From an uncultured virus (IMG/VR IMGVR_UViG_3300007514_000623) (lineage: Duplodnaviria; Heunggongvirae; Uroviricota; Caudoviricetes), in IMG/VR virus record IMGVR_UViG_3300007514_000623: DNA of 64,000 nt. One strand, given 5' to 3'. Positions 4,435 through 40,039 of the stretch are shown here, one piece after another. How positions within the stretch are numbered: position 1 is the stretch's first letter; each line of letters starts with the position of its first letter. The notes under the pieces were generated by a model. The model ran no database searches and was not told the DNA's origin. It saw only the letters and a list, made by a program, of their open reading frames with translations. The position numbers and the translations under genes were made by a program.

Positions 4435-4446
4435 GGTATGTCTCTT
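4404..4446. terminator. Probable bidirectional terminator between converging units
   Basis: 12-bp stem AAGAGACATACC/GGTATGTCTCTT with an A run on the left (U tract for the - strand). Confidence 0.65.
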
Positions 4447-4459
4447 ATAAACCAGTATT

Positions 4460-6760: not shown

Positions 6761-6953
6761 CTTTGTAGTTTTGTCTCTCTAATAGTTCTCTAGGTGTTAA
6801 CATTGTACCGCACGTTTTACATAATAGGACTTCATCTGGAATATCCGCTACATATTCTATATCTATCGGGGAATCCATGAAGTTGATAAAGTTATGGAAA
6901 CCTAGATCGCAACGGCGGTCTTGAAATGACATATCGAATATGGATTTTTTCAT
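6747..6953 (-). CDS. Hypothetical protein, possible Zn-binding (C...H...CxxC)
   Basis: RCDLGFH and LCKTCG motifs. Confidence 0.55.
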   Translation of the reverse strand: MKKSIFDMSFQDRRCDLGFHNFINFMDSPIDIEYVADIPDEVLLCKTCGTMLTPRELLERQNYKDETL

Positions 6954-7459
6954 TATCTTATTCTTTTTCCGTGTTCATATTCTTTTTTTAACTTGAGATT
7001 GCCGTATTCATCCCATTCTTTATACGTTCCATGTCTTTTACCATGTTGATAGTGCTGTTCATTTTGTTTAGAACCGTCCAGACGATAGGATATATGTCTG
7101 CCATGTCTCTTTGCATCATAGTATTCCAGTTCATAATGAAGTTGGCCAGAAGGATACCATGCCTTTGAAATTCCATGACGTTCACCTAGTTTATAATGCT
7201 TCTGAAATTTTTTGAAACCAGAATCAGGATAAAAACCAACAGCCTCTCCTTCTCTTTCGCCCATGTTATAGTTATATCTGTATTGCAGTTTGCCGTCTGG
7301 ATTGTATTCAAATTGATGTCCATGCTTTTCATCATTGACAAAATGATATTCGCATTTGATATTGCCATTATCCCAATGGATTTTATAATCATACTCCATT
7401 ATTTCTTGCCTTTCTTCTTGGGGGGAGTCTGGACTTCGTTTTGTAATAGAATATCCCAA
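6953..7459 (-). CDS. MORN-variant repeat protein (YwqK-like)
   Basis: Repeated Y..G.RHG....WY..G.L units. Confidence 0.8.
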   Translation of the reverse strand: MGYSITKRSPDSPQEERQEIMEYDYKIHWDNGNIKCEYHFVNDEKHGHQFEYNPDGKLQYRYNYNMGEREGEAVGFYPDSGFKKFQKHYKLGERHGISKAWYPSGQLHYELEYYDAKRHGRHISYRLDGSKQNEQHYQHGKRHGTYKEWDEYGNLKLKKEYEHGKRIR

Positions 7460-23200: not shown

Positions 23201-25565
23201 CATTGGTGCATTGGAAAAACGTATAGACAATATAGAATATTATGCTTCATTATCTTTATTAGAAAGTGAAACAGAAGCATTAGTTATTAAGGATGCAAAT
23301 GGTTTAGATAGATTTAAGAATGGAATTTTAGCTGATCCGTTTAGGGGTCATGGTGTTGGTGATGTTTTAAGTGCAGATTATAAATGTGCAATCGATTTTG
23401 CAGAACAAACATTAAGACCAAGTTTTAATTCTAATATTACAGATGTGTCTTATGAATCTGGTGATTCACAGAACGTAACGAAAAAGGGAGATTTAATTAC
23501 ACTTCCATATACTACTGCAACATTTGTAAATCAAACAATAGCATCCCAATCGATTAATGTTAATCCTTATGCGGTATTAGCATGGATAGGAACGGTTGAT
23601 CTTACACCGCCTAATGATAACTGGATTGATACTGCTAATCAACCCGAAGTAGTTGTAAACCTTCAAGGTGAAAATGATGCATGGTCAAGATTAGTTGGTC
23701 TAGGGTTTGGTACACAGTTTAATGATTGGCAAGATATTGGTACTGGTCGAAATGAAAGGGTAACGGGAACGCAAGGAAGTTTTGTATCGGGTCGTGCTAT
23801 TATTCAAAGACAAACTGTTAGAGTAGATCAACAACAAAGTCGAACTGGTATTCGTAATGAAATTGTTGGAACAGATACAGTAAGAAATAGTATCGGTGAT
23901 AGAGTAGTTGATGTTTCTGTTATACCATTTATTCGTTCAAGGGATGTAGCGGTTTCTGTTACTGGAATGAAACCAAACACTAGAGTATATGCTTTCTTTG
24001 ATGGTGTTGACGTTACTGCTCATTGTACACCAACAGAATTATATACAGATTCATCTGGTGCTATTACATTAACCTTTACTATTCCCAATACTGATACACT
24101 ACGATTCAGAACTGGTGAAAGACAATTCCTGTTAGTCGATAATACAAATGGGGATTTAATTTCTGCATCTACATATGCGGAAGTTATTTATCAAGCACAA
24201 GGTTTATTGCAAACAAGAGAAAATGTTGTAGTATCTTCAAGAGTTCCTAGAATACAACAGTTTGCTATGGGTAGTGCTACAGAGTTTAGAACAACGACAA
24301 ATCAGTTTACCAGAAATGCAGTAGTAGGATGGATTGATCCTCTTGCTGAAACATTCTTGGTTGATGAAGCATTATATCCAGATGGAATTTTTGTTTCAGA
24401 CGTTGATTTGTTTTTCAAAACAAAAGATACAGATGGTTTACCAGTAACACTACAAATTAGAGATACACTAAATGGTTATCCAACTCAAACAATATTACCA
24501 TTCTCGGATGTTGCTTTAACACCCGATCAAGTTAATATAAGTGAGGATGCGACAAGTGCAACTAAGTTTACATTCCCATCATTGGTTTACTTGCAGCCTG
24601 GTGAATATGCTCTTGTTATCATAAGTAATAGTACGAAATATGAAGCGTTCATTTCTGAAATGGGGCAGAACATTATTGGTACAAACCGAAAGGTATCTGA
24701 ACAACCTTATGCTGGTGTATTCTTCAAATCACAGAATGCTTCAACATGGAGTCCAGATCAGAATCAAGATTTAACTTTTAGAATTAATAAAGCAGTGTTT
24801 GATAATACTTTAACATCAGAAGCTGTCTTTAAGGATGGAACAGCGTCTGCTGATGTTAAAGCAGATATTATTGATATAATTCCTCAAACGGTTAGGGTTA
24901 ATAGTACGGATATTGCTTGGGGAGTTAAGATGACAAGTGTAGGTACATCATTATTAGATACTAGTTATACTTCCGTAACACAAAATAATAATTACCAATG
25001 GAATGTACAAAAACTTATTACTCAATCAGCAGGAAGTTATATACAAAGAGGAACATTGACATCTTCTAGTATTCACGTTAGTCCTGTTATTGATACAGCG
25101 AGGAATAGTGTTATTACCATTGAAAATATTATTAACAATTTAACTAGTGGTGAGGAAGTTCAAGAAGGTGGAGATGCACTTGCGAGATATCTTTCAAGAA
25201 GGGTAACACTAAAGGATGGTTTTGATGCTACAGACTTAAAAGTTTATATGACTGCTAATAGACAAAGTGGTACAACAATTACTATGTATTATAAAGTCCT
25301 TTCGCAATTTGATGCTGACGATTTTGATGATAAGTTATGGGTAAAAATGCAAGAGGTAACAAATACAAATACAGTTTCCGCAAATGATGATAGTGAAGAA
25401 TATTTGGAACTGGAATTTTCACCTAGTACAGCTAATACAAATTATACAGTTGGTGCAGTAACATATGATAGTTTTAAAACATTTGCAGTTAAAATTGTTA
25501 TGACATCAACCAATACAACTAAAGTTCCTCTTATTAAAGACCTAAGATGTATTGCATTGGCATAA
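20220..25565 (+). CDS. Large virion structural protein (VrlC/DUF4815-like)
   Basis: PYFDDFD, VQARELT..Q, APGADR.K, ARRT.DESG.Y, YTMRDIG.LE.RI, RFKNG, DPLA.TF, LFKSQN.STW, C-terminal DLR.IALA. Confidence 0.88.
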   Translation: MSNNITVNTNQNPYFDDFDENDNFHQVMYKPSLPVQARELTTQQSILRDQVKKFGDHVFKNGSKVTGADVTLNLDYEFVKLQSQLNGVDINVDNFAGKTITGNESGTKALVIGTAKLDTDSGDPNTVFVKYITGGAVTDGVQGIKVLNVGSGYTSVPTVVITPTNGGSGATAVANVNNGTVTSVDVTNSGTGYLSAPTITFAGGSGSGTTATSTIETSPTFLGNERVSATDLSISALTQSSSPTGTGSSVSLSEGVFYINGNFVKTATQTIVLDKYTNTPSYKIGVTVLESIITSGDDSTLLDNAQGSFNFSAPGADRLKLALTLTKKTLDSEDDTDFFEVLRVDNGLKQLDVAVPLYSALEQTFARRTFDESGSYTVRPFNIQLKDDPLDSTKFIARLDPGKAFIEGFEYETIISTDLSIEKARTTVNVNNFDRLMQYGNYIIVTGYKGMFDITSNVKIDLHNADHASIVTTDSGTYANTKIGEARIRSVQHISGTGVTATYRLYIYDIQITTSTFAEVESVVIPESPLSGAIDFIGYANIDDSGKDGGTSGGDAKLFETSENSMLFKLPQNTIQTIRDESSGIDTSYTIKRVFKDVPFTVGQATIPTGGVTETFLGTGSLSNTNKVENYLITVKTVGTSAFSVGDVISLDDPATATVNGPDNISVTFDANTATNFTADIIATLNIDNKQEKTKALTKCHSKTIASPNTSMLSSDSLEISDVYTLDAVYDSEDLATDPTLPTLNVNQTSDSLTPGETITGLTSGAKGKVIAGAGGTTTVTYVLMSGTFVVEDVIGATSGFTKTVTTVVAGSPEISSRYSLNTGQKDNFYDHGSIKLKDGSTAPTGRITAVFTYFTHTGIGYFSVDSYTSSVGFDNIPTYTSPITGDTVELRDCIDFRPRRDDGGVGVSNAEVPSPNTNWSADYSYYLPRVDTVYLSRERKFGSNMGVPSLTTVPPIRLDGTMNLYALEIPAYTFKASDVNAKYIENKRYTMRDIGALEKRIDNIEYYASLSLLESETEALVIKDANGLDRFKNGILADPFRGHGVGDVLSADYKCAIDFAEQTLRPSFNSNITDVSYESGDSQNVTKKGDLITLPYTTATFVNQTIASQSINVNPYAVLAWIGTVDLTPPNDNWIDTANQPEVVVNLQGENDAWSRLVGLGFGTQFNDWQDIGTGRNERVTGTQGSFVSGRAIIQRQTVRVDQQQSRTGIRNEIVGTDTVRNSIGDRVVDVSVIPFIRSRDVAVSVTGMKPNTRVYAFFDGVDVTAHCTPTELYTDSSGAITLTFTIPNTDTLRFRTGERQFLLVDNTNGDLISASTYAEVIYQAQGLLQTRENVVVSSRVPRIQQFAMGSATEFRTTTNQFTRNAVVGWIDPLAETFLVDEALYPDGIFVSDVDLFFKTKDTDGLPVTLQIRDTLNGYPTQTILPFSDVALTPDQVNISEDATSATKFTFPSLVYLQPGEYALVIISNSTKYEAFISEMGQNIIGTNRKVSEQPYAGVFFKSQNASTWSPDQNQDLTFRINKAVFDNTLTSEAVFKDGTASADVKADIIDIIPQTVRVNSTDIAWGVKMTSVGTSLLDTSYTSVTQNNNYQWNVQKLITQSAGSYIQRGTLTSSSIHVSPVIDTARNSVITIENIINNLTSGEEVQEGGDALARYLSRRVTLKDGFDATDLKVYMTANRQSGTTITMYYKVLSQFDADDFDDKLWVKMQEVTNTNTVSANDDSEEYLELEFSPSTANTNYTVGAVTYDSFKTFAVKIVMTSTNTTKVPLIKDLRCIALA

Positions 25566-28217: not shown

Positions 28218-28505
28218 ATGAAAGCAAGTGAAGCGAGAGAACAAGCACGAACTCAAGCACAGCGGGAACAAAATATGACATGGCAGGAAATTCGTGATGA
28301 CTCTATTAGTAAATTAAAAGATATAGCAACAGCAGTAACTAGTGGTTTTATAGAAAAAGAAATACAAGCTGAACGATATTCAATATGTGAGGATTGTTCT
28401 CAATTTAAAAAATCAACAAGACAATGTAAAATATGTAGTTGTTTTATGCCTGCAAAGACATTGTTTAATAGGTCGAGATGTCCTAAAGGTTATTGGAATA
28501 AATAA
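28218..28505 (+). CDS. Small Cys-motif (metal-binding) protein
   Basis: R..IC..C, C..C.CFM..K......CP...W. Confidence 0.7.
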   Translation: MKASEAREQARTQAQREQNMTWQEIRDDSISKLKDIATAVTSGFIEKEIQAERYSICEDCSQFKKSTRQCKICSCFMPAKTLFNRSRCPKGYWNK

Positions 28506-28519
28506 AAGGGTAAACTCTT

Positions 28520-30157
28520 ATGGCTAAACAAGTAAAAAGACGAAGGGGTACAACATCAGAACATGGAGCCTTTACTGGTGCTGTTGGTGAGACAACTGTT
28601 GATACTGATTTAAACACAGTTGTCGTACATGACGGCTTATTGGCTGGTGGTTATCCTCTTGCTAAAGCAGACTTAACAAATGCTGATCTTTCAAATAAAA
28701 TAAATGTTAATGAGTTAGCAACTACGGATGGAAGTGCTGGAGATGTTTTAACTACAGATGGTGCTGGGAATGTTACATTTACATCACCAGGCGGTGTTAA
28801 TCCAAACTCAGTTGGTGTAACCGAACTTAATACGAGTGATGGTCTTGCTGGAACTCATTTAACAACAAACGGTGCTGGTGTATTATCTTTCTCCGCTCCA
28901 AGTGTCGGTGTTGATGAATTAGAATGTGCAGATGGTACAGCAGGACAAGTATTGACCACAGATGGTGCTGGTGGAATAAGTTTTACTACACCAGCAACTG
29001 GATCATTAACTCCAAATTCAGTTGGTATAACGGAACTCAATACAAGTGATGGTTCAAATGGTCAAGTCTTATCCACAGACGGTATGGGTAACTTATCATT
29101 CGTAACTCAAACTGGTGTTGGTGGTTCTGGTAGTTCTAATTTTGTTGAAGATACTTTTTCTGGTAATGGTTCAACTGCAACATTCACTTTAAGTACAGCT
29201 GCACCTTCCGAAGAAAGTATTTTATGTTTTGTTGATGGTGTTTCTCAACCAACCACTTCATATACTTTACCAACAACAACTAGTATTACTTTCTCTCCCG
29301 CTCCTCCGAATGGTTCTGCAATAAAAGTATTACACTTAGGAATTGCAAGTACAGTTGCTGATGGTAGTGTAACAACTGCTAAGTTAGCTAACAATTCAGT
29401 TACCATAGAAAAACTTGCAGTAGCGGATGGAACAGCTGGACAAGTACTTACTACGGATGGTGCTGGAACATTATCATTCGCAGATGATTCTACAAATGTT
29501 GGTGCAACTGCTGTTGGTGGTGATGTTACTGGTACAGTTTCTAATATTACAATTCCGAATAATACTATTACATCTGCTATGATCGGGAACGGTGTTATTG
29601 TTGCACAAGACATCGCTACGAATTCTATAAACGGAACACATCTCGCTATGGGGTCTGATGCTCTTGGTGATTTGTTACGCAATAATGGTACAGACTTTGA
29701 AAGATTACCTATCGGTACTGTTGGTCAGATACTATCAGTAGTAGGAGGCGTACCAACATGGACAAGTGGTGGTGCGTTACAAGCAGCTGTTATAGGTGGC
29801 GGTGGAACTTTTAGTGGTTCAACTACTCAGACTCTTACTGGTACTGGGTTTACGCCGACAGTTGCTATATTATTTGGTAGTAGTACATCTGGTGCTGGTA
29901 CGAGATGGTCGATAGGGGTTGCTGGTGCTGGTGGAAATTCTAATATTTGTGTAGGAACAACCGACTCTGACAATTATGATGCGACTTTGTTATATACGGA
30001 TCGTTGTTTAATGATTGGTGATATTGACACATCAAATGGCGGCAGTGGTGGTTCAACATCATATACTTTTAATGCTTTTAATAATGATGGTGCTGTTTTT
30101 AATATCTCAGGTCATGCAAATATTAATGTAACATTACAGGTATTATTTTTAGGATAA
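28520..30157 (+). CDS. Tail fibre-like protein with Mtd-type N-terminal domain (paralogue of 25757-26851)
   Basis: KRRRGTT..H..FTGA.GE; five or more DG..GQVLTTDG.G..SF repeats; F.G.GS...FTL...V.GV.Q domain. Confidence 0.75.
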   Translation: MAKQVKRRRGTTSEHGAFTGAVGETTVDTDLNTVVVHDGLLAGGYPLAKADLTNADLSNKINVNELATTDGSAGDVLTTDGAGNVTFTSPGGVNPNSVGVTELNTSDGLAGTHLTTNGAGVLSFSAPSVGVDELECADGTAGQVLTTDGAGGISFTTPATGSLTPNSVGITELNTSDGSNGQVLSTDGMGNLSFVTQTGVGGSGSSNFVEDTFSGNGSTATFTLSTAAPSEESILCFVDGVSQPTTSYTLPTTTSITFSPAPPNGSAIKVLHLGIASTVADGSVTTAKLANNSVTIEKLAVADGTAGQVLTTDGAGTLSFADDSTNVGATAVGGDVTGTVSNITIPNNTITSAMIGNGVIVAQDIATNSINGTHLAMGSDALGDLLRNNGTDFERLPIGTVGQILSVVGGVPTWTSGGALQAAVIGGGGTFSGSTTQTLTGTGFTPTVAILFGSSTSGAGTRWSIGVAGAGGNSNICVGTTDSDNYDATLLYTDRCLMIGDIDTSNGGSGGSTSYTFNAFNNDGAVFNISGHANINVTLQVLFLG

Positions 30158-30175
30158 GAATAGAGGAATAAAAAC

Positions 30176-31048
30176 ATGGCATTAATAACTGTCAATTTAG
30201 TAGACACCTTTGATGAGTGGAGAGTTAAGACCAATAGTATTAGTGTAACTACTGGTGATCTTAATTCACTTAACACAAGTAATCAAAATAGTTTAGTAGA
30301 ATCCATTAATGAATTATTGGTAATCTCTGCAAGCAATTTGGATAATGTCGTTGAAGATACAACGCCTGAGCTTGGTGGCGATTTAGACTTGAATGGAAAC
30401 AACATAACTGGAACTGGTAATATATCTATTACTGGTACTTTTAGTGGAGTACTTTCTGGAACGGTTACTGGTGTTACTCAAACAACTGGTGATGTTTCAG
30501 ATAAACTTGCTACTACACAATTTGTTGCTAATACAACTATGTTACTTCCTCTTGCTGGTGATATTACTGGTAATGCTGGAGCAACTCAAATTGCTACGAA
30601 TGTTGTTGGTATTACAGAGTTAGATGTTAGTGATGGAACAAATGGACAGTTACTTTCTACGGATGGTTCTGGAAATTTAAGTTTTGTTGATTCGGATTTA
30701 ACAGTTGGTGGTGATTTATCAGGTACGTTAAGTAATGCACAGATAGTTGCTAATTCAGTTGGTATCAATGAACTTAATTTAGTGGATGGCACATCAGGTC
30801 AAGTATTAACGACAGATGGTTCTGGTGGAATAAGTTTTAAAACTGTTTTTACCGAAACTACTGTTACTCCAACCGCTAATCAAACAATATTTCCAATAGT
30901 ATATGAAGTAGGTAGAATTTGTGTATATTTAAATGGTGTTAAGTTAGTAGGTGGTGGTTTAGACTATACTGCTAGTAATGGTACAGACGTTACCCTTACT
31001 GCTGGTGTTAATACAACTGATACAGTCGAGTTCCATACATTTTTATAA
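30176..31048 (+). CDS. Fibre/baseplate-associated structural protein
   Basis: DTFDEWR.KTN start, VEDT.P.LGG.LDLNG, C-terminal VYLNGVKL...DYTA.NGT domain. Confidence 0.7.
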   Translation: MALITVNLVDTFDEWRVKTNSISVTTGDLNSLNTSNQNSLVESINELLVISASNLDNVVEDTTPELGGDLDLNGNNITGTGNISITGTFSGVLSGTVTGVTQTTGDVSDKLATTQFVANTTMLLPLAGDITGNAGATQIATNVVGITELDVSDGTNGQLLSTDGSGNLSFVDSDLTVGGDLSGTLSNAQIVANSVGINELNLVDGTSGQVLTTDGSGGISFKTVFTETTVTPTANQTIFPIVYEVGRICVYLNGVKLVGGGLDYTASNGTDVTLTAGVNTTDTVEFHTFL

Positions 31049-31089: not shown

Positions 31090-31097
31090 TATAAATA
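31090..31097 (+). promoter_or_regulatory. T4-type late promoter TATAAATA heading the modification cassette
   Basis: Exact consensus, intergenic. Confidence 0.7.
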
Positions 31098-31124
31098 TAT
31101 TATAATGCAATAAAGAGGAGAGAA

Positions 31125-32009
31125 ATGTCAGAGTTTATTTTAAATGACCAAGATGTAAATGCGAATGATAAGTACTTGTCTGATAAACACCCACTTAAAT
31201 CACTTTTTAGTATAAAGCAGTGTTGGACAACCCCTATTGGAGAGATAGATATAAATCTTCCAGAGGATATGCGAATAGCATTGATTGAGTATATTGCATC
31301 AAAGGGTTACTGTACAACAATGGGAACTCATAAGAGAACTCAAACTAGAGAGTTTGAAGAAAATCATTATAATCTTTTTGATGAGAAAGATAATAACGAA
31401 CATATAAAAAAGTTTGAGGAATATTCTTCTGAATTGATTAGGTATTATATTGCCAATGGTTATAATATTGGGAATGTAGAAACCTTTGATATTGATGCTA
31501 GAGCATTTGGTAATATGCAAACAGCGGGAAGAAGAACTTATCCGCATTATCATCATGGGTTTGATGGAGTTATGATATGCTATCTTACAGTAGGAAGTGA
31601 ATTTGTATTAACGACAGATTTAGAAGGTACAGATGATACGCAATTAGTTGTATCGCCTGGTTCTAGTATTTGTCGAATACCACAAACCGAATTAAAAAAA
31701 ATAGAAGATACTTCAAATGAAGTAAAAGCAGATTATGGTAGTTTTGAGTTAAAGGTACAGGATATGCCGTGTGAGGGTGATGGTACTATGTTACTCCAAG
31801 ACCCACGGCCTGCGATTAATTATCCTTATAATAATAAAGCTCAAGACTATCAACCGAAAGTTGGGAGATGTGTTTTTCACCCAGCATATATTTGGCATGA
31901 GTCCAACACCTATAACACTAAGGGTGTTCGGGCAGCAGTTGTAGTTAACTACCGTGTGCTTACACACAATAATAGTGGATTAGTAAGACCTTTATCAAAA
32001 CCCGAATAG
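31125..32009 (+). CDS. Putative 2OG-Fe(II) oxygenase (cassette enzyme 1)
   Basis: FGN.Q...RTYPHYH, YL, QDPRP.INYP, P.VG....HPAY.WHE.N, R...VVNY. Confidence 0.75.
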   Translation: MSEFILNDQDVNANDKYLSDKHPLKSLFSIKQCWTTPIGEIDINLPEDMRIALIEYIASKGYCTTMGTHKRTQTREFEENHYNLFDEKDNNEHIKKFEEYSSELIRYYIANGYNIGNVETFDIDARAFGNMQTAGRRTYPHYHHGFDGVMICYLTVGSEFVLTTDLEGTDDTQLVVSPGSSICRIPQTELKKIEDTSNEVKADYGSFELKVQDMPCEGDGTMLLQDPRPAINYPYNNKAQDYQPKVGRCVFHPAYIWHESNTYNTKGVRAAVVVNYRVLTHNNSGLVRPLSKPE

Positions 32010-32081
32010 TAGTAAATACATTTATATTATAACCTATATATAGAAATATTATAAATTTTAATCTTATAAGAGGAAAAAGAA

Positions 32082-32495
32082 ATGACTATTGCACGACAAA
32101 TCGCTGACCTAATTGATACAGGTGGAGATGTTAAATTAAGTAACTTGGATAATGTTCCGCCTAGTGATTGGAATACTCTTTTGAATAGACCAGATCATGC
32201 GAATACAGATACACGAAATGCAAGCAACATCACTTCTGGTACTTTGTCCCAAGCTCGTATGGGTTCTGGAACAACGAATAGTTCAACATACTTGCGTGGT
32301 GATGGTACATGGACTGCTGCTTGTCAAACTACAGTTTATACAAATTGTAATAACACAAGTGGAAACTGTACAAACCATGCGAATTGTGCCACAGCTGGTA
32401 GTTCTTATACCAACTGTAACTTTTCAACATCTAAAGTAAATCAAATTAATGCATTTAATTGTGCTTGCGATTGTGCTTGCGCTTGTAACTGTTAA
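32082..32495 (+). CDS. Small fibre-motif protein with 11-Cys C-terminal tail; candidate substrate of the radical SAM enzyme
   Basis: MT.AR.IADL start and NASNITSGTL..AR.GSGT...TYLRGDGTW fibre motif, then Asn-Cys repeats ending NCACDCACACNC. Confidence 0.8.
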   Translation: MTIARQIADLIDTGGDVKLSNLDNVPPSDWNTLLNRPDHANTDTRNASNITSGTLSQARMGSGTTNSSTYLRGDGTWTAACQTTVYTNCNNTSGNCTNHANCATAGSSYTNCNFSTSKVNQINAFNCACDCACACNC

Positions 32496-32547
32496 TAAAG
32501 AGACACTAATTTTTTAATGACACTAATAATAAAGGAGTAATAAAAAA

Positions 32548-33618
32548 ATGTTTAGAAAAATGTATGACAGTCTCTCTATGCCAGTTCACGTTGAATTATT
32601 GGTATCAGATGATAATATCTGTCTAAAAACATGGGTAAGAATTACAGAAGAAATTTATAACATGAGTTATAATGATAGCTCACGTGGAGATGATAAACCT
32701 TCAAGAAGTTTGTTGATTAACAACAATACCGCTTACATGGATTTCCCAGGCGATTCATCTGGTGTTTATCATACTAAACTTCCTGCTGGTCGTTTCGGTG
32801 GTGGAACAAAAGCAAGAGGGGAAGATTTTTTACCAAATATTCCTGCTGATATCAGGGATGATTATACCGACAAACTTGCTGGTACATACTGGCAGTGTAA
32901 TTCATATAGTTGGATTGATCCAACTGATCCATCTATCTTAGGTGGTGAATTATCTGATGCAGCTTGTTGGAGTATTGGTATTGGTGCTCGTACTTTACCT
33001 GAAATTAAAGTTGATCCAGATGAAGAGCAATATCATTCTATGTATATGCATCTTTATCCTGCTTATCCATCACAGAATGCTTTGGCAATATCTAGAAACA
33101 CAAAAGGACATCCGCTTCGTGAATCACGAAGATATGGTGCTCCTGTTTCTTTGATGGTTTATCAACCTTTCATGGATACAGCATTTACTGCAAGTTCAAT
33201 GACCTTGAAGTATAATAAAGCTTCTGGTTTCTCTACTAACATAGGGGATTGGACAGTTGGTGTTGACCATAAAGAAATGTTTAATATGTCTGGTACAGGA
33301 TATAACTATCTTGGACATCTTAAAGAAGGTTTGCCTGGTTTTGAAGTAACAAGTGGCGGTGGTTCTATTGACGCTGATGGTTATGATACCGTTAATTTTA
33401 AAATGGTAGATAATGACGGTTCAACAATTAACCATGCAACAACCGTTCATCTTGAACATACAGGCGGTTATTTACCTCACCAACGTATCGACATAACTGA
33501 TGGTACAGGATCATTCAAAGTTGGTGCTTTAGGAATGACAAGTGGAGATGTATTTAAAGTAAAAATTGGTTTTAGAAATTATACTGGTGTTGCAGACGTA
33601 GAATATACTGTAGCATAA
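32548..33618 (+). CDS. Unknown protein in the radical SAM cassette; beta-rich C-terminal domain
   Basis: AAGGAG SD; C-terminus GYLP..R...DG.G.FKV.ALG...GD..KVKIGF..YTG; no catalytic motif recognised. Confidence 0.7.
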   Translation: MFRKMYDSLSMPVHVELLVSDDNICLKTWVRITEEIYNMSYNDSSRGDDKPSRSLLINNNTAYMDFPGDSSGVYHTKLPAGRFGGGTKARGEDFLPNIPADIRDDYTDKLAGTYWQCNSYSWIDPTDPSILGGELSDAACWSIGIGARTLPEIKVDPDEEQYHSMYMHLYPAYPSQNALAISRNTKGHPLRESRRYGAPVSLMVYQPFMDTAFTASSMTLKYNKASGFSTNIGDWTVGVDHKEMFNMSGTGYNYLGHLKEGLPGFEVTSGGGSIDADGYDTVNFKMVDNDGSTINHATTVHLEHTGGYLPHQRIDITDGTGSFKVGALGMTSGDVFKVKIGFRNYTGVADVEYTVA

Positions 33619-33639
33619 GTATAGTAGTAATACACAATG

Positions 33640-33674
33640 TTAGAGGGGGGAAAATTTATTCCCCCCTAATTTTT
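33640..33674 (+). terminator. Intrinsic terminator inside the cassette
   Basis: GGGGGGAA/TTCCCCCC stem followed by TAATTTTT. Confidence 0.65.
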
Positions 33675-33692
33675 ACAGTTGAGAGGAAACGG

Positions 33693-34508
33693 ATGAGCAA
33701 ACCAGAACATTTAAAATACTACGAAAATTTAGAACCAGAGGCAAAAGATACTAGAAAGCATCATTTAGACGATCATGTAAGAATAGATCATAAGTGGACA
33801 ACACCATTTTTTGAAATGGATGGTGTATTGCCTAAAAAAATGAGAGATGATTTATGTCGAGTCTTGGAAAAAAAAGAACTTGACATGAAAGCTGTGAAAG
33901 AAAAAGAACCCGAATTTTATTCTATTGCACAATCAAAGGGTTTCTATGCAACAACTCATTACAATCTTTTTGCTGAAGAAGATATGAATGAGTTTCCAAA
34001 TGAAAAAGAATCCATACTAGCTTATGAAAAATTAGCTATGGAGCAAATTCGTTATTACATTCGTAAAGGTTGGGGTGTACAACAAGCAGATGACATGAGA
34101 CTTGAAGGAAGATGTTTTGGTAATGTCCAAAGTGCAAGTGATCAGCAAGGTGGAGCTCGAACTTATCCTCACTATCATCAAGATATGAATGGTGTATTAG
34201 TTCATTACCTAAGAATCGGTGATGAAGAAGTGCCTCTTGATAAACAACTACAAGTTGGTCAGGAGCAGTCATCAAGACATGGTTCACATCAAGTTTTATT
34301 TCAAGACCCTCGCCCCTCTATCAACTATCCTTTTTGGGAAAAGATTTATGCGGTATCGCCGAGAGTAGGACTTACACTCATTCATCCAAACTATGTTTGG
34401 CATGAAACTAATCCATGGCTAGGAAAAGGTACAAGGGTATGCATTGTTGTTAATTTTAGAGTTATGTCGCATGGATATAACGAATTGTCAATACCACTTA
34501 GGGGATAA
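33693..34508 (+). CDS. Putative 2OG-Fe(II) oxygenase (cassette enzyme 2, paralogue of 31125-32009)
   Basis: W.TP, HYNLF, IRYYI..G, FGN.Q, RTYPHYH, QDPRP.INYP, HP.Y.WHE.N, VVNFRV. Confidence 0.75.
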   Translation: MSKPEHLKYYENLEPEAKDTRKHHLDDHVRIDHKWTTPFFEMDGVLPKKMRDDLCRVLEKKELDMKAVKEKEPEFYSIAQSKGFYATTHYNLFAEEDMNEFPNEKESILAYEKLAMEQIRYYIRKGWGVQQADDMRLEGRCFGNVQSASDQQGGARTYPHYHQDMNGVLVHYLRIGDEEVPLDKQLQVGQEQSSRHGSHQVLFQDPRPSINYPFWEKIYAVSPRVGLTLIHPNYVWHETNPWLGKGTRVCIVVNFRVMSHGYNELSIPLRG

Positions 34509-34514
34509 TATAAT

Positions 34515-35894
34515 ATGGCACAGTTTAAATTTTATTTAGAGAGAGCTGCTACAGAAGATCGGCCTGCAGAAAAAGATGTTTTAACTTATGATAACATGAC
34601 CTCTCAAATGTGGATGCAAAATGGTGATATCTGTTTACCTCAAGATTTGTTTAATGATTGGGATGAGCTTGAAGCATGGAAGATGAATGCTGGTAAAGGA
34701 AACCTAAAGAAAATAAAAATCAACTTGGGATTAAAATGTAATTACTCTTGTGATTATTGTTCACAGAGATTTGTTCCAAGAAATAAAGACGATCATTTGG
34801 ACACATCAGATTTTTATAGTATATCTGATGCAGAGATCGAAGAATATGTTAACAAGTTTGACAGCATAAGCATAGATAAAGAACCCCACTTTGAGTTATG
34901 GGGTGGTGAACCATTTTTATATTGGAAAACAATGAAACCTTTAATTGAAAGGTTACATGAAAAATGGCCAGAATCTACTTATAGTGTTATTACTAATGGT
35001 TCAATGTTTACAGATGAAATTATAGATTTCATTGTTAAACATAATATACAAATTTCTGTTTCACATGATGGGCCAGGACAACCAACTAGAGGGCCTGATC
35101 CATTTGATGATCCAGAAAAAGCAAAGATGATTCAGAAACTAAAAAACAAATTAGCACCTAATGGTAAGATGTCTTTTAATTCTATGATTCATAAAGACAA
35201 TCCAAGTAGGGCTGAAGTTCAAAGATATTTTCGCAACAAAGTAGGAAATATGCCTATTGGAGAAGGTGGTACAGTAGATGCATATGATGAAGGTGGATTA
35301 AATAATTCTTGGCGTACCGAAGAAGAACATTTAGAGTATAGAAGAAATGCTTTTTCAGAAATTGTTACAGGAAAAGCACCAAACTTTATTATCATAAGAC
35401 AAAAGATTGATAATTGGGTTAAATCACTAAGAGGACAAAGACCTGCTGAAGCATTAAATCAAAAGTGTGGTATGGATGATCCTCAAACTATGGCAGTTGA
35501 TATGAATGGTAATATAACAACTTGTCAAAATGTTACAGCATCATCAACCAATAGTGCTGGAATAAGTCATAAGATTGGAAATCTTGATGAAGGGGATGAA
35601 GGTCTTTCAAAAATCAAGATCAATCCAGGCACACATTGGTCTGATAGAAAAGAATGTGGTGATTGTCCTGTATTACAATTATGTCATGGGTCTTGTTTAT
35701 TTCTTGCACCCGATTCAGAGTATTGGGATATATCTTGTAACAATGCTTTTAGTGATAATGTAGTTTGGTTAGCAGCTGCATTATATGAGTTGTCAAATGG
35801 AATGGTACTTTATAAAATCGAAGGCCCACAAAGGGAATCTAGACAAGATATATTTGGATTTGAGGCGATAGAAAATGCAAGTAACAATAACTAA
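34515..35894 (+). CDS. Radical SAM enzyme with SPASM domain (peptide/protein maturase-like)
   Basis: CNYSCDYC (CxxxCxxC), WGGEP, ITNG, SHDG; SPASM: KCG...D..G....C...C..C.....C.G.C...C. Confidence 0.93.
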   Translation: MAQFKFYLERAATEDRPAEKDVLTYDNMTSQMWMQNGDICLPQDLFNDWDELEAWKMNAGKGNLKKIKINLGLKCNYSCDYCSQRFVPRNKDDHLDTSDFYSISDAEIEEYVNKFDSISIDKEPHFELWGGEPFLYWKTMKPLIERLHEKWPESTYSVITNGSMFTDEIIDFIVKHNIQISVSHDGPGQPTRGPDPFDDPEKAKMIQKLKNKLAPNGKMSFNSMIHKDNPSRAEVQRYFRNKVGNMPIGEGGTVDAYDEGGLNNSWRTEEEHLEYRRNAFSEIVTGKAPNFIIIRQKIDNWVKSLRGQRPAEALNQKCGMDDPQTMAVDMNGNITTCQNVTASSTNSAGISHKIGNLDEGDEGLSKIKINPGTHWSDRKECGDCPVLQLCHGSCLFLAPDSEYWDISCNNAFSDNVVWLAAALYELSNGMVLYKIEGPQRESRQDIFGFEAIENASNNN

Positions 35895-36777
35895 AAAAGA
35901 TTCTTTCAAATCTTGGATTGAAAAAACAAATTTAATCTCTGAAAATATTGGGGATTTAGATGATTTGAATACTACAAATAAAAGTAATATTGTTAATCCA
36001 ATCAATGAAACATTAGGAACACTTCAAGGTGAATTGCAAAATGTTGTAGAAGATACTAACCCTGCTTTGGGTGGCCATTTAGACTTGAATAGTTTTAAGA
36101 TTACTGGGAATGGCAATATATCTATTATTGGTACAATGGATGTTACAAGTATTGTTGGTTCAACATTAGGATTCACTCAACTGTTGACAGACGAATCTGA
36201 TAAAATAGCAACAACAGCATATACAGGTGCAAAGGTAAGTGCTGTCGCTCCATCCGTTACATTTTCGGGTGATATATCAGGTGCTCCGCTTAGTAATCAA
36301 ATTGAACCAAATGTAGTTGGTTTAACTGAATTAGATACAACCTTTTTTGATTCAGGTGGTCTTTTATTTGTCTCAACTCAAGGTAATGGGCAATTAAAGT
36401 TTATAAATACAGATAGTGTAGGTGCGATTGGTGGCGGTGATATCTCTGGTTCTATTGACTACCTAGAGATTAATCAAGGAGTAATAAACGTCGCTGAACT
36501 TGATTTAGCAGATAGTTCAGTAGGACATATTGCGACTACGGATGGTGTGGGTGTAATTAATTTTAGACCTTCCGTGATAATTGATACGTTAACGCCCAAT
36601 ATCGGAGATCACACGTTTTTAGTTAATTATAATATTGGTAAAATAGTGGTTTATATGAACGGCATTAAGTTGGTTAATGGGGTTGATTTTACAGCAACCA
36701 ATGGAACTCAGGTAGTGCTAACGCCTGCGGTTTCAACAAATAATACGACTCTTGAGTTTCAAAGATATTGTGTTTAA
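35875..36777 (+). CDS. Fibre/baseplate-associated structural protein (paralogue of 30176-31048)
   Basis: DSF..W..KTN, VEDT.P.LGG.LDLN, VYMNG.KL..G.DFTA.NGT. Confidence 0.7.
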   Translation: MQVTITKKDSFKSWIEKTNLISENIGDLDDLNTTNKSNIVNPINETLGTLQGELQNVVEDTNPALGGHLDLNSFKITGNGNISIIGTMDVTSIVGSTLGFTQLLTDESDKIATTAYTGAKVSAVAPSVTFSGDISGAPLSNQIEPNVVGLTELDTTFFDSGGLLFVSTQGNGQLKFINTDSVGAIGGGDISGSIDYLEINQGVINVAELDLADSSVGHIATTDGVGVINFRPSVIIDTLTPNIGDHTFLVNYNIGKIVVYMNGIKLVNGVDFTATNGTQVVLTPAVSTNNTTLEFQRYCV

Positions 36778-36842
36778 GTATTAAGGAATGAGTAGTCAAA
36801 TAAATCTAATAATAACTTTATAGAAATAAGGAAACACGCCAA

Positions 36843-37169
36843 ATGGGTACAAACACATTTAAAAATGCACAAGCAGCATCTGTTACAAGTGTTACAACGG
36901 TTTATGCAGCTCCCGCTGGTAAATCATCAATCGTATTGGAATTGGACGTAGCTAATACATCTGGCAGTACAGCATCTATTGACGTAATAGTTATAGATAG
37001 TTCTGGTGGAACATCTGCATATCTTGTTAAAGGTACAAACGTATTAGCTGGTTCATCTATGAAAATAGTATCTGGACAAAAAATTGTTTTGGATGGTAGT
37101 GATTCAATTACGGTTACATCTGACCAAACAGTAGATGTTATGTGTTCAGTTCTTGAAGATGTTAATTAA
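36843..37169 (+). CDS. Conserved small virion-region protein (M.NTFKN type)
   Basis: NTFKN, Y..P.......L..AN, KIVL...D.I.V, D...S.LE. Confidence 0.7.
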   Translation: MGTNTFKNAQAASVTSVTTVYAAPAGKSSIVLELDVANTSGSTASIDVIVIDSSGGTSAYLVKGTNVLAGSSMKIVSGQKIVLDGSDSITVTSDQTVDVMCSVLEDVN

Positions 37170-37223
37170 TACAATTCAGTAATTTAAATTTACATAATAC
37201 TTTCATAGAAAAGGAAAATAAAT

Positions 37224-37481
37224 ATGTCATCAACAACAGATTTTATGGGAACGCAACCATCTGGTGTGAGGAGCATGATCGTTACACCTACAGCGAACCA
37301 GACGGTATTTAGTATAACATATACACCCAATAGGTTGTTCGTGTTTCTCAATGGTATTAAGTTAATAAGTGGTACAGATTATACTGCAACAAACGGAACG
37401 AGCGTTACTTTTACTACTGGTGTGCAAACATCAGATAGAGTTGAATTTAATTGTTTCGATCTATGGGATGCTGACGTATAA
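37224..37481 (+). CDS. Small structural protein, stand-alone version of the V.LNG.KL...DYTATNGT domain
   Basis: Matches the C-terminal domains of 30176-31048 and 35875-36777. Confidence 0.7.
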   Translation: MSSTTDFMGTQPSGVRSMIVTPTANQTVFSITYTPNRLFVFLNGIKLISGTDYTATNGTSVTFTTGVQTSDRVEFNCFDLWDADV

Positions 37482-37534
37482 TCAATTATATATTAACTAA
37501 CACATCAACAACATTACAATAGGGGAAACGACGA

Positions 37535-40039
37535 ATGGCTGCAATATCTGAATCACTAAGGATGATAGCCGGTGAGCAAAAACCAAGTAATTTGACTTTC
37601 TCACGGGCATCACAAGGTACAAGAGTAAATAAAATTGGACACATTGAAACCATGGCAACGGATGAAGTTCGTATGGACTATTATCCTTCCATGAGTTTGG
37701 TTGGTGTTCGCAGAGGTTATTTGTTAGAAGAAGCTTCTACAAATATGCTTTTACAATCATCAGATTTTTCTACAACATGGGCAGTTGATACAGCTGCTAC
37801 CTTAACAAACTTAGGTGGTATGTCTGCAAATGGTACAGATTTCATGTCGCCTGACGGTTTGAAAACTGGTGATTATCTTAACGCTGCTTCAACTGGTACT
37901 GGTATCGTAGCAGCAAGACAAACAGGATTGACTTTTACAAACGGAACAAAATATACAGTTTCAGTTTGGGCTAGAAAATCATTAGGTTATGATTATCTTG
38001 AAATATCTAATCTTGATAATGATGCCGCTGGACGTACATTCGCAAAAACATTTAATCTTTCTACTGGTGCGGTTGGAACAGCTGGTAACGGTGCAGATGC
38101 TTCTGGAATGGACGAATATTCTGGTGGATGGTATCGCTGTTGGGTAACTTTTACTGCTGATGCTTCTTCAGCTGGTGAAATTTATTTCAAAGCAAGAAAT
38201 GATGATGATATTTCTACGACTTCAGCACATACTGCTGGTAATAAGATTCATCTTTGGGGTGCTCAATGTGAAGCACTTGCATACATGACTTCTTATGTTC
38301 CAACAACTACATCTACAGTTGCAAGAGCTGCTGACGTTGCTTTGATTTCTGCTACGGATGATGCATGGAACTGGAACGCTGGTGTTTCTATGTGGTGTGA
38401 TTATGTTCCTTTGAACACTACTGAAACAGTAACACCAATTTTTCATTATGCTGATTCTACTAATGCAAACTACATGACATTGTTGAGTGATGGTAAAGTT
38501 AGAGTTGTATCTAACTCCGAATCTCAATTAGCAAGTGATCCTTTTGATGCTGGTATTGGTTTAGTATCAAAGACACAATATCGTGGTTTGATGTCAATGA
38601 AGATTAATCATTTCCATTATTCATCTAATGGTGTTTTGTCTGCAAATCTTCCAGATACATCAATTACAGTACCTTTGAAAACTGGTAGTTCTAATTATTC
38701 TGCTAAGTTCTTTCATGGTACAGGATATGCTAACTCAGGTAGTGGTTGGTTGAAGGGTTTTGAGATTTATCCTCAAGCACTTGCTACAATCGATATGCAA
38801 AATCGTTCTATTGAAGTTAATACTGATCTTTCTACAATTCAGATTTCTTCATCTGGTACGGTTTCAGATAATACTGTTAGTGAATCTAAGTTAATGGCTG
38901 GTTCAGTTACAGAAACTAAGATTGGTGCTAGTGCGGTAACGGAAGGTAAACTTGCTGATGGAGCAGTTACTGGAAATAAATTAGGTAATGACTCTATTGC
39001 ACAAAACCATATCCAAGATAATGCAATTCAAAACGAACACATCTTAGATAATGCAATTACATCTAGTAAGATTGCCTTTGATGTTATCGTTGCTGATGAT
39101 ATTGCTAATAATGCAATTACAGTTGCAGAATTGAGTAATGATGCAGTTGAAACTGCTAAGATCAAAGACTTGAATGTTACAAGAGCAAAACTTGCTAATG
39201 ATGTTATTGATGGAACTAAAATTGCTGATGATGCAGTTGATAGTGAACATTTAGCTGCTGGTGGTATCGACGCTGAACATATAGCTAACGACGCTGTTGA
39301 TTCTCAACATTATGCTGCTGGTTCTATCGACGCTGAACATATAGCTAACGACGCTGTTGATTCTCAACATTATGCTGATGGTTCTATCGACACAGCTCAC
39401 ATTGGCGATCTTCAAGTTACAGTTGACAAGGTTGGAAGTAATGCAATCACAACTGCTAAGATTGTTGACTTGAATGTTACAAATGCTAAGTTGGCTGCTG
39501 ATTCAGTAACAACTGCTAAGATAGTAGATGGTAATATTACATCAGCTAAGATTGCTGCTGGACAGATCAATGCTTCTCATATTGCTGATGGTACTGTTGT
39601 TGAAGCAGAACTTGCTGACAATTCAGTAACCGCTAACAAACTTGCTGATGATTCAGTTGATACAGCTGCAATCGTTGATGCGAATGTTACGGAAGCAAAA
39701 ATTGCTGATGGTGCAGTTACAAATGCTAAGTTGGGTGCAAACTCAATTACATCTGATAAGATCGCACTTGACATTATCGTTGCTGAAGACTTAGCAGCTA
39801 ATAGTGTTACATTTGCAGAGATTCAAGATGGTGCAGTAAGACTTGCTAAGATTCAAGATGGTGCTGTTGATGGTACTAAGATTGAATTGACAGGTAATGC
39901 ACATGGCGACATTATGTACTATGATGGAACTGATTGGGTAAGACTCGAAGCTGTAGAAAGTTGTTATTTACAGTCTAACGGTGCTGGTGCAGCTCCTTCA
40001 TGGGTAAGTAGTTCTACTTTAGCAATCGCTCTAGGTTAA
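37535..40039 (+). CDS. Head-spike/fibre-like protein with long D.AVT..KI repeat shaft
   Basis: TF.RAS..T.....G.I, G.L.EE..TN.L..S, GWYRC, WGAQ.E....TSY.PT...V.RAAD, then many 10-residue repeats. Confidence 0.75.
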   Translation: MAAISESLRMIAGEQKPSNLTFSRASQGTRVNKIGHIETMATDEVRMDYYPSMSLVGVRRGYLLEEASTNMLLQSSDFSTTWAVDTAATLTNLGGMSANGTDFMSPDGLKTGDYLNAASTGTGIVAARQTGLTFTNGTKYTVSVWARKSLGYDYLEISNLDNDAAGRTFAKTFNLSTGAVGTAGNGADASGMDEYSGGWYRCWVTFTADASSAGEIYFKARNDDDISTTSAHTAGNKIHLWGAQCEALAYMTSYVPTTTSTVARAADVALISATDDAWNWNAGVSMWCDYVPLNTTETVTPIFHYADSTNANYMTLLSDGKVRVVSNSESQLASDPFDAGIGLVSKTQYRGLMSMKINHFHYSSNGVLSANLPDTSITVPLKTGSSNYSAKFFHGTGYANSGSGWLKGFEIYPQALATIDMQNRSIEVNTDLSTIQISSSGTVSDNTVSESKLMAGSVTETKIGASAVTEGKLADGAVTGNKLGNDSIAQNHIQDNAIQNEHILDNAITSSKIAFDVIVADDIANNAITVAELSNDAVETAKIKDLNVTRAKLANDVIDGTKIADDAVDSEHLAAGGIDAEHIANDAVDSQHYAAGSIDAEHIANDAVDSQHYADGSIDTAHIGDLQVTVDKVGSNAITTAKIVDLNVTNAKLAADSVTTAKIVDGNITSAKIAAGQINASHIADGTVVEAELADNSVTANKLADDSVDTAAIVDANVTEAKIADGAVTNAKLGANSITSDKIALDIIVAEDLAANSVTFAEIQDGAVRLAKIQDGAVDGTKIELTGNAHGDIMYYDGTDWVRLEAVESCYLQSNGAGAAPSWVSSSTLAIALG
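39265..39391 (+). repeat. Near-perfect 60-bp tandem duplication within the fibre gene
   Basis: 39265-39331 equals 39325-39391 except for one base. Confidence 0.9.

Follow-up and report, generated by a model that had tools for sequence, protein, structure and literature searches.

What does a tailed phage do with a radical S-adenosylmethionine (SAM) enzyme encoded in the middle of its fibre genes, when enzymes of this class have so far been tied to secreted peptides and a few cellular proteins? The question is raised by a 64,000-nucleotide stretch of DNA from an uncultured Caudoviricetes virus (IMG/VR record IMGVR_UViG_3300007514_000623), analysed at its full length and referred to here as the window. 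It contains a cassette encoding a radical SAM/SPASM enzyme, two 2-oxoglutarate (2OG)-Fe(II) oxygenases, a Cys-rich protein of 137 amino acids (aa) and a conserved 356-aa partner that we call U. An original prediction, made from the sequence alone, held that these genes resemble systems for peptides that are synthesised on ribosomes and modified after translation (RiPPs), and that they crosslink and hydroxylate a virion appendage. The core of the cassette would be formed by the radical SAM/SPASM enzyme together with a fibre or fibre-like protein that ends in a ladder of Cys alternating with small residues (Asn, Ala, Asp). We favour the reading, at a probability of about 0.6, that this is a mobile, phage-borne protein-maturation cassette, the proposed chemistry being radical SAM thioether stapling of the fibre tip.

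Layout of the cassette

All five predicted open reading frames (ORFs) were found, co-oriented on the + strand, between positions 31125 and 35894. The elements are as follows.

31090..31097, + strand: TATAAATA, a T4-type late-promoter-like motif, 27 nt before the ATG of oxygenase 1
31125..32009, + strand: 2OG-Fe(II) oxygenase paralogue 1, 294 aa (PF13759 22 bits, below the cut-off of 27; phrog_81 6.9e-10)
32082..32495, + strand: 137-aa fibre-like protein, the presumed substrate, with a conserved N-terminal part and a Cys-rich C-terminal half
32322..32492, + strand: Cys-rich region within the 137-aa protein (residues 81-137, 11 Cys)
32457-32492, + strand: terminal ladder NCACDCACACNC, residues 126-137, at the C-terminal end of the 137-aa protein
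32548..33618, + strand: U, the 356-aa conserved partner, with a C-terminal immunoglobulin (Ig)-like domain (residues 262-356) and an N-terminal domain without a matched fold
33644..33667, + strand: terminator-like GC hairpin (9 pairs, 6 GC) with a T run after it, separating U from oxygenase 2
33693..34508, + strand: 2OG-Fe(II) oxygenase paralogue 2, 271 aa (PF13759 31.9 bits, above 27; phrog_81 3.5e-07)
34515..35894, + strand: radical SAM/SPASM enzyme, 459 aa (PF04055, TIGR04085; phrog_1802 1.5e-58)

The gaps between successive genes are 72, 52, 74 and 6 nt, and the next fibre gene (from 35875) overlaps the enzyme gene by 20 nt.

The enzyme and the Cys ladder occur together

Loci encoding relatives of the enzyme were collected with a single-protein query (16 loci), with a nine-sequence profile (the best 80 of at least 596 IMG/VR stretches) and from one genome per species (14 loci, among them contigs of Limnohabitans, Polaromonas, Castellaniella and Burkholderia paludis MSh1). 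Loci L019-L023 were dropped because they lie on the same contigs as L006-L010. The resulting forward set comprised 108 loci including the window; their 1436 co-oriented predicted proteins were clustered, and dereplication of the enzymes at 90% identity gave 68 clusters. A co-oriented neighbour was scored as motif-bearing when it contained CxCxCxC, or CxCxC no more than 6 residues from its end. Such a neighbour was present in 60 of the 68 enzyme clusters, and in 54 of the 59 having at least 4 kb of upstream sequence. The motif-bearing proteins (100 of the 1436) all belong to 11 sequence clusters with mutually unrelated bodies, indicating that the tail, and not one particular protein, travels with the enzyme.

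For the reverse direction, a degenerate DNA pattern for N-C-N-C-N-C-[N/D]-C retrieved at least 120 IMG/VR stretches; 80 with flanks were examined, and the enzyme was called by hmmsearch with the profile of alignment A1 (E < 1e-10) within 5 kb. Of the 49 loci whose ladder is in frame and at most 10 residues from the end of an ORF that is 80 aa or longer, 45 have the enzyme, in each case on the same strand; the four exceptions have just 210-1071 nt of downstream flank. In the control loci, whose DNA pattern does not form an in-frame motif in an ORF of 50 aa or more, the enzyme was detected in 1 of 19. The other in-frame cases, with internal ladders or short ORFs, gave 5 of 12, including L189 and L134, whose tails are described below. 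The two tests are not fully independent, since at least eight of the reverse loci lie on contigs of the forward set. The original prediction had staked itself on a Cys-repeat-tailed ORF being consistently adjacent to the enzyme, and these proteins do accompany each other from both sides (60/68 forward, 45/49 reverse).

The low scores of some reverse positives (40-115 bits) suggest that variant tails have more distant enzyme families as partners. Distant enzymes of this kind are encoded at L123, L157 and L186 (~115 bits) and at L127, L135 and L191 (40-98 bits), and the variant tails read ...NCNCNCDCSDDSGGG and ...ST(A/N)CNCNCNC(N/A)C(T/S/G)RG... At L123, L157 and L186 a second ladder protein is encoded on the other side of the enzyme. 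The contig of L098 carries two enzyme genes and two different ladder-tailed proteins (1047-1337 and 4009-4554).

The family spans marine T4-like phages, freshwater betaproteobacterial siphophages and prophages, and one Ackermannviridae phage, and the cassette lies in tail modules of three morphotypes (sipho-, Ackermann- and T4-like). The enzyme is 40-45% identical to relatives in the Achromobacter siphophages JWF and 2-1 and in the Ackermannviridae Ralstonia phage RSP15 (tblastn); in the JWF and RSP15 records it adjoins a fibre gene. The usual siphophage-type order is a J-like tail protein, two small tail genes, carrier, U, oxygenase, enzyme and then lysis genes (JWF annotation). Cultured phages are among its members, which makes it directly testable. 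Neither the whole 5-kb cassette (blastn) nor U (tblastn) had a match in 50,697 phage records.

A mostly C-terminal ladder

In agreement with the original prediction, all 11 Cys of the 137-aa protein lie in its last 57 residues (positions 81, 89, 96, 102, 112, 127, 129, 131, 133, 135 and 137). They are preceded by Asn in six cases, by Ala in four and by Asp in one. The 16 small T4-like carriers of this family (alignment A3) all end in an invariant CACNC and have many Asn-Cys pairs upstream of it. Over 70 distinct tails, the x residues of the ladder (282 positions) are N 146, A 72, D 41, Q 7, V 5, T 3, Y 3, S 2, C 2 and R 1, so that N, A or D occupies 259 of the 282 positions. The ladder is exactly C-terminal in 33 of these tails and stops 1-6 residues short of the end in 27; in the other 10, more than 100 residues follow.

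Five of these ten long-tailed carriers (JWF, a B. paludis prophage, L064, L077 and L014) have a Hint-like domain 0-6 residues past the ladder, beginning Cys-Phe/Leu-x-x-x-Thr, and L189 of the reverse set adds a sixth case. JWF gp028, labelled in GenBank as a Hom_end-associated Hint family protein, reads ...QNCNCDCNCNCSC with the Hint-type sequence directly after it. Each of the four carriers scanned matches 2-4 Hint-clan Pfam families with E values of 1e-6 to 1e-2, all below the gathering threshold (best 29.4 vs 32.1); every match starts at the Cys after the ladder, and matches to NCBIfam intein-region models are weak. Hint domains cleave the bond before their first Cys. Such cleavage would make the ladder the new C-terminus with 0-6 residues left, the same range as in the directly terminated carriers. 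We infer that the enzyme needs a free, flexible C-terminal ladder; a simple explanation would be that a buried radical SAM active site is within reach of nothing but the terminal tail of a folded, probably trimeric fibre. The Hint-type carriers are encoded at L002 (JWF) 5631-7079, L108 3610-5136, L064 3013-4434, L077 3993-5135, L014 2023-2838 and L189 4485-5558. As far as readable, their Hint-like domains end in an NG-x-x-x-(S/T)-type sequence and not in His-Asn, which suggests N-terminal cleavage only.

Four other long-tailed carriers (cluster 46) have a conserved 'SKIIC(T/A)KLY' domain after the ladder, with a hydrophobic ending in the three complete ones. Carriers of this type are encoded downstream of the enzyme (L012 9908-10807; L013 5069-5977; L102 3064-3750; L109 3025-3927; L134 4632-5531, reverse-strand numbering); the domain spans ~175 residues, its ends in the complete ones are membrane-like, and it matched no family in Pfam, PHROG or NCBIfam. 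In the remaining long-tailed carrier the ladder lies inside a 1921-aa protein, ahead of a run of eight Gly.

Apart from this motif within the 1921-aa protein, carriers are 82-691 aa long. Tail-fibre PHROG matches were obtained for 4 of 10 representative carriers, in one case to collagen-like fibre families (phrog_5073, 2e-104), and GenBank annotates both JWF gp028 and RSP15 gp048, which terminates in ...NTNCQCGN, as fibre proteins. Among the small carriers (82-137 aa) there is no strong match to a structural-protein family. Neither the 137-aa protein nor U matched a Pfam or NCBIfam family, or a PHROG at E <= 0.001, and BLASTP of the 137-aa protein with composition correction against 30 window proteins gave no match, hence no significant likeness to the adjacent fibres. 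At several loci two to four paralogous small proteins with ladder tails are encoded in tandem ahead of a single U and a single enzyme, reminiscent of multi-precursor RiPP systems (L032/L035 2621-3979, three; L033 1-1887, four; L056 3687-4569, three; L069 4763-5623).

The radical SAM/SPASM enzyme

The enzyme was predicted to combine a CxxxCxxC motif with a SPASM Cys array, and both are complete: C75/C79/C82 for the former, and C318-x13-G332-x4-C337, C381xxC384x5C390x3C394 and C408 for the latter. Its scores exceed the cut-offs of PF04055 (41.1 bits vs a gathering cut-off of 29.5) and TIGR04085 (36.1 bits vs 27). Among 93 distinct relatives CxxxCxxC is kept in all and the seven SPASM Cys in 92-93; an eighth Cys, far downstream at position 430, is present in 33. 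None of the 93 has the extra Cys that the anaerobic sulfatase-maturating enzyme (anSME) has between the first two SPASM Cys. The family comprises 2126 clusters (90% identity) at E <= 1e-20, the best 120 listed being 41-98% identical, and at least 531 relatives were confirmed among the at least 596 candidate IMG/VR stretches found with the nine-sequence profile.

The top curated-model matches, PapB and CcpM, are thioether maturases. Judged by sequence, the enzyme is a family of its own (phrog_1802), because no curated maturase model comes near its cut-off. The nearest solved structures by sequence are 8vpo (6.9e-20), CteB (3e-11) and anSME (4k37; 4.6e-9). The N-terminal extension of the enzyme is 65 residues long.

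Helper proteins and oxygenases

The 356-aa partner had been described as an unknown that belongs with the other genes, and its conservation alongside them is confirmed: the U superfamily (clusters 1, 28, 272, 232 and 80; hhalign 97-99%) is present in 46 of the 59 clusters whose upstream flank is complete, and its gene nearly always follows immediately on that of the carrier. Helpers of a third type (clusters 35, 120 and 300, including JWF gp029) occur in six more, so that some helper is present in 52/59. None of the 58 homologues of U has a name. The predicted model of U (pLDDT, the predicted score of the local distance difference test, 87.4) has an Ig-like fold of the intimin/invasin/GH2 type in its last 95 residues (Z 11.1, root-mean-square deviation (rmsd) 2.3, 92 aligned), and searches with full-length U in Foldseek and VIA matched this C-terminal domain only. 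Residues 1-261 folded alone (pLDDT 82.8) gave nothing at Z >= 5 against 48,161 PDB representatives; the best hits, which point in theme to tail proteins and lie below the trustworthy level, were SPP1 gp22 (Z 4.9, rmsd 4.4, 112 aligned) and the cyanophage A-1(L) tail fibre and Mtd (Z 3.0). A search of the ESM Atlas with residues 1-260 was set aside, its best score of 0.87, to fucose isomerase C-terminal clusters, being below the meaningful level. Prediction of a complex of U with the 137-aa protein, using both alignments and run without controls, scored 0.00 against a mark of 0.32, which is no evidence either way. An adhesin-type Ig domain in a gene that comes directly after a fibre gene suits a fibre assembly helper or distal adhesin and, equally, a helper that presents the substrate.

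The two oxygenases were correctly taken to be paralogues. Oxygenase 2 passes PF13759; oxygenase 1 scores below that cut-off and is identified by its similarity to oxygenase 2 (34% identity, E 3e-48). Oxygenase 1 belongs to locus cluster 3 (47 loci). 2OG oxygenases are present in 42 of the 59 clusters, in up to seven copies. One set is PF13759-like (clusters 3, 51, 4 and 45, of which 4, 45 and 51 were linked by hhalign at 95-97%), and the other is prolyl-hydroxylase-like (PF13640; clusters 22 and 42). Cluster 33 (RSP15 gp046; H-x-D...H seen by eye) is found in six clusters, which brings the total with an oxygenase or a cluster 33 protein to 48/59. We considered and rejected oxygenases as core components: just 42/59 clusters have one, and minimal cassettes at L016, L069 and L080 consist of carrier and enzyme only. 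In one lineage (L039, L040, L042, L044 and L047; cluster 29, e.g. L047 4650-5396) one or two ~250-aa proteins are encoded that have hydrophobic segments and His-rich boxes (H-x-x-x-x-H and HDEHH, by eye); they recall membrane di-iron hydroxylases/desaturases and have no Pfam match.

Proposed mechanism

On the favoured reading, the flexible C-terminal tail of the fibre would enter the enzyme, where the first auxiliary cluster would bind a substrate Cys at its open iron. A hydrogen would then be lost to the 5'-deoxyadenosyl radical from a carbon of a neighbouring Asn, Ala or Asp, leading to a C-S thioether, and repetition down the ladder would produce a reduction-proof, rigid, covalently stapled fibre end. 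Overlapping N-x-x-C beta-thioethers are one possible arrangement of the rings, because NCNC contains overlapping NxxC; links between adjacent residues and links between the chains of the fibre trimer are others. In the accessible text of PMC9389541, TqqB links adjacent residues, which keeps rings between neighbours an option for the ladder. U would act as the fibre-tip partner (assembly helper or distal adhesin), and the 2OG-Fe(II) oxygenases as optional tailoring enzymes, probably hydroxylases of the same region.

We favour a thioether product in view of the seven-Cys SPASM array, the acceptor-like x residues and the overlapping NxxC units. As judged from the sequences, the enzyme very likely acts on the ladder, the product is likely a thioether, and these viruses probably modify their own fibre tip chemically. 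The proposal that a virion fibre is modified was supported in part: the gene association, the U and oxygenase companions and the fibre-type carriers speak for it, while the 137-aa protein itself has just a weak fibre match. We put forward more tentatively a stronger version, which we think possible and rather less than an even bet, in which tailed phages of several morphotypes turn the last 8-20 residues of a receptor-side fibre protein into a continuous thioether zipper. Each Cys would be joined to a carbon of a neighbouring residue, in overlapping NxxC-type or adjacent-residue rings, possibly across three chains. In it the ladder would have to be a free C-terminus, a Hint domain that cuts itself off would restore that terminus in lineages with an extended gene, and hydroxyl groups would come from the oxygenases. 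Covalent stapling by an enzyme would then be seen for the first time in a host-recognition organelle of a virion, and the proteins would make up a new RiPP-like class that has a helper of its own (U).

Several results weigh against the favoured reading. Of the eight forward clusters scored as lacking the motif, two, L060 and L061, are true exceptions with full flanks and no motif, and three have broken or short versions (L036 ...ACNCAGGACDCG, RSP15 ...NCQCGN and L059 ...CSNCSCGSK); the remaining three are cut by a contig end or the flank limit (L037/L038, L052 and L039). The match of the 137-aa protein to phrog_5342 (tail fibre) is weak (E 0.0012), and 3 of 16 relatives match it, the best at 3.4e-5. 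The curated maturase models are far under their cut-offs (PapB NF047865 69 vs 340, 4e-19; CcpM TIGR04068 60 vs 500, 1.9e-16; the SCIFF maturase model, CteB-type, TIGR03974 36.3 vs 425; the CrpC family TIGR04463 32.2 vs 525). Among solved relatives only anSME aligns over the full length (profile positions 67-375), and 8vpo, according to the accessible text, is a structure cited in a paper on cyclopropylglycine synthases and is not a thioether former. No Pfam match to a RiPP recognition element (PqqD-like) was obtained on the enzyme, including its N-terminus, or on U. Six catalytic-proximity positions, as named in the available part of PMC10288494, were read off HMMER alignments to CteB and anSME: they are S-W-I-S-Q-N here, nearly invariant, and unlike both CteB (F-F-T-S-H-Q) and anSME (F-Q-Q-S-D-F). 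The bond type accordingly stays a proposal. Oxygen damages radical SAM enzymes, yet the companion oxygenases require O2 and the hosts are probably aerobes. Finally, no experiment on any member of the cassette was found in print.

Alternative explanations

The alternative that survives best, which we regard as unlikely, is that the enzyme alters the ladder Cys without crosslinking them, as anSME does (formylglycine, thioaldehyde or another non-bridging change), giving a reactive or polar tip. The near full-length alignment to anSME (E 4.6e-9) is in its favour, as are the TIGR03942 match over residues 71-394, the anSME-like lack of a detected N-terminal recognition domain and the annotation of the JWF gene by its depositors as an anaerobic sulfatase-maturating enzyme. 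The TIGR03942 score, though, is 56.8 against a cut-off of 349.45, and the extra auxiliary-cluster Cys is absent from all 93 relatives. The tails lack the sulfatase motif Cys-x-Pro/Ala-x-Arg (Cys/Ser-x-Pro/Ala-x-Arg for anSME substrates in general), and the preference for N, A or D beside every Cys suggests that the neighbouring residue matters.

Alternatively, the ladder could be mainly a metal or iron-sulfur needle in a trimeric fibre, like the His-x-His sites of T4, with the enzyme, U and the oxygenases serving assembly or metal loading. Alternate residues of a beta-strand face one side, and three chains could line Cys metal sites; CrpA, the substrate of the archaeal system discussed below, is also suspected of metal binding in the accessible text of PMC13692751. 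Metal binding, however, needs no dedicated radical SAM/SPASM enzyme, yet 45/49 tail loci have one, and by itself it does not explain the restriction of x to N, A and D. We therefore give this explanation little credence.

That the cassette yields a released natural product, such as a bacteriocin-like RiPP or a lysis or competition factor cut from a tail protein, would account for the RiPP-like enzyme class and Cys-rich C-terminal core, the tandem precursors of some loci and the small carriers (82-137 aa) that lack a strong structural-protein family. The recurrent neighbours are tail, helper, oxygenase and lysis genes, with no protease or exporter among them, which argues against a secreted product. 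Moreover, carriers of up to 691 aa match tail-fibre families and have collagen-like repeats, and the cassette sits within tail modules of three morphotypes. This explanation is accordingly quite improbable. That these are unrelated auxiliary metabolic genes, brought together by chance in a variable fibre region that may be an insertion hot spot in a phage with further 2OG oxygenases elsewhere (1129-1764 and 1846-2619), is hardly credible in view of 45/49 against 1/19 in the control and an association found in both directions across very different phage backbones.

Transcription signals and sequence variation

The late-promoter-like motif TATAAATA is present where the original prediction had placed it; it is not enriched in the window, which has 16 matches as compared to 10.35 +/- 3.27 in shuffled sequences, with 7/100 shuffles reaching 16. 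Fifteen of the 16 copies are on the + strand. The five genes are co-oriented, and the picture of a single operon is qualified by the terminator-like hairpin at 33644-33667, which splits the first three from the last two. Three small contigs of one metatranscriptome library lie on the cassette (32401-32660, 33448-33684 and 34308-34471); DNA carry-over is possible and we make no claim of expression from them, nor does a part lacking RNA contigs speak for silence. One of these contigs stops at 33684, 17 nt past the hairpin, which gives no more than a weak hint. In another study a 19.5-kb contig extends over the entire cassette and differs from it by 47 substitutions, and the indels listed for it are all in 32503-32524, the spacer between carrier and U; substitutions together with indels confined to a spacer fit genes that are kept intact.

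Genomic context of the window

The window corresponds to the structural region of a T4-like myovirus, with baseplate wedge, fibre, neck, terminase, sheath, tube and portal genes, a 1781-aa structural protein, prohead protease, scaffold and major capsid protein. The capsid protein is closest to those of Methylophilales phage Melnitz (61.7%) and Pelagibacter phages Mosig (61.0%) and HTVC008M (57.9%), and none of these is one of the 24 phage records in which the radical SAM enzyme has a relative (tblastn). Eight studies have near-identical DNA in their marine, seawater or estuary metagenomes, and one of these studies may be the origin of the window. The embedding of the cassette among fibre genes holds, the flanks being of fibre type (Mtd_N, phrog_892, phrog_9648 and others):

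28520..31048, + strand: upstream fibre genes, 545 aa (with Mtd_N) and 290 aa (Pfam/PHROG; locus cluster 9)
35875..40039, + strand: downstream fibre genes, 300, 108, 85 and 834 aa (phrog_25848, phrog_18345, phrog_892 2e-56)

Further upstream, at 28218-28505, a 95-aa protein with a CxxC...CxxCxC...C pattern is encoded (phrog_13558, 9e-13), possibly a zinc-ribbon protein of the fibre module; it lies beside fibre genes in 11 loci (cluster 23). The 1781-aa structural protein (20220-25565) belongs to locus cluster 26, members of which directly adjoin the enzyme in RSP15 (L001 9346-14277) and L060 (2-5791), and the member at L089 (1-5763) has an internal NCNCACDC followed by eight Gly. Far from the cassette, positions 356-2619 contain a purC-like gene (phrog_1112, 3.9e-56) and then two more 2OG-Fe(II) oxygenase genes (1129-1764 and 1846-2619; phrog_81, 1.4e-35 and 1.3e-19).

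Implications

If the favoured reading is true, phages use natural-product chemistry on their own particle, hardening or functionalising the fibre end that meets the host. It would explain, at least within fibre modules, the abundant radical SAM and 2OG oxygenase genes of marine phages, often read as metabolic, and would introduce a new variable into host-range and virion-stability biology. The C-terminal (N-C)n would be a very short tag for enzymatic protein stapling. It would also pose a biochemical puzzle, since the aerobic hosts would combine within the same pathway an enzyme that is oxygen-labile and oxygenases that depend on O2.

Comparison with known systems

The remark in the original prediction that no characterised example was known to it still stands for phages, as full-text literature searches found no radical SAM modification of a phage fibre. 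PMC7159879 was rejected as a phage precedent, as it deals with other systems.

The closest published system is CrpC/CrpA of Methanococcus voltae (2026), a precedent for a protein substrate that is archaeal and cellular. According to the accessible part of that report, the SPASM enzyme CrpC puts ranthionine crosslinks on a 28.8-kDa Cys-repeat protein, has the same 3+4 seven-Cys SPASM pattern and is proposed to have an open iron for the substrate Cys (PMC13692751). Like the cassette, it pairs a folded protein having a C-terminal Cys-repeat region with a neighbouring seven-Cys SPASM enzyme. Modification becomes more extensive with the accessory protein CrpB, and the function of the product is given as unknown there (PMC13692751). 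There are also differences: CrpC has a predicted recognition element, whereas none was detected here, where TIGR04463 scores 32.2 against 525, and CrpA has C-x-x-Q/D motifs in 17-residue repeats in place of a strictly alternating ladder at the end, comes without oxygenases and is neither viral nor structural.

Among peptide systems, NxxcB forms a thioether from Cys to the beta-carbon of Asn and tolerates Ala, Gln and Asp as acceptor (PMC9389541), and the acceptors of PapB include Asp, with thioethers from Cys to the beta-carbon of Asp/Glu (PMC12373016), in both cases as far as the accessible text goes. The acceptors of NxxcB/NxxcA and PapB/PapA (freyrasin) match the N, A, D and Q of the ladder, and PapB is the best curated-model match (4e-19). 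Their substrates are short, released leader-core peptides, in contrast to ladder carriers of 82-691 aa with many fibre-family matches, and the every-second-residue spacing of the ladder is not described for the NxxcB/PapB systems in the available portions of PMC9389541, PMC12373016 and PMC13692751. Of the features that define a RiPP system, the Cys-rich neighbour was found (60/68, 45/49) and the short, cleaved and exported precursor was not.

The enzyme resembles anSME (4k37; TIGR03942) in its presumed protein substrate, in having no detected recognition domain and in full-length sequence similarity. It differs in that anSME has the extra auxiliary-cluster Cys and a different substrate motif, and makes formylglycine instead of crosslinks. 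A structural subunit as substrate has a parallel in QhpD/QhpC of quinohemoprotein amine dehydrogenase maturation, where a SPASM enzyme makes Cys-Asp/Glu thioethers in the small structural subunit of a protein complex; there the target is a periplasmic enzyme subunit without a ladder motif, and TIGR03906 (QhpD) scores 56.3 against 453 here (2.2e-15).

For the fibre itself, the tip of T4 gp37 has His-x-His iron sites, and some phage fibres have self-cleaving C-terminal domains. The ladder would likewise place a motif of alternating residues close to the distal tip of a probably trimeric fibre, and in some carriers a C-terminal part would be removed after folding. It differs from T4 gp37 in using Cys, in having a dedicated radical enzyme and, in some members, in its putatively removable Hint/intein-like domain. 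The new part, which we hold to be reasonably probable, would be SPASM-type Cys chemistry acting on the fibre of a virion, together with a dedicated helper, oxygenases and, in certain lineages, a Hint domain that removes itself.

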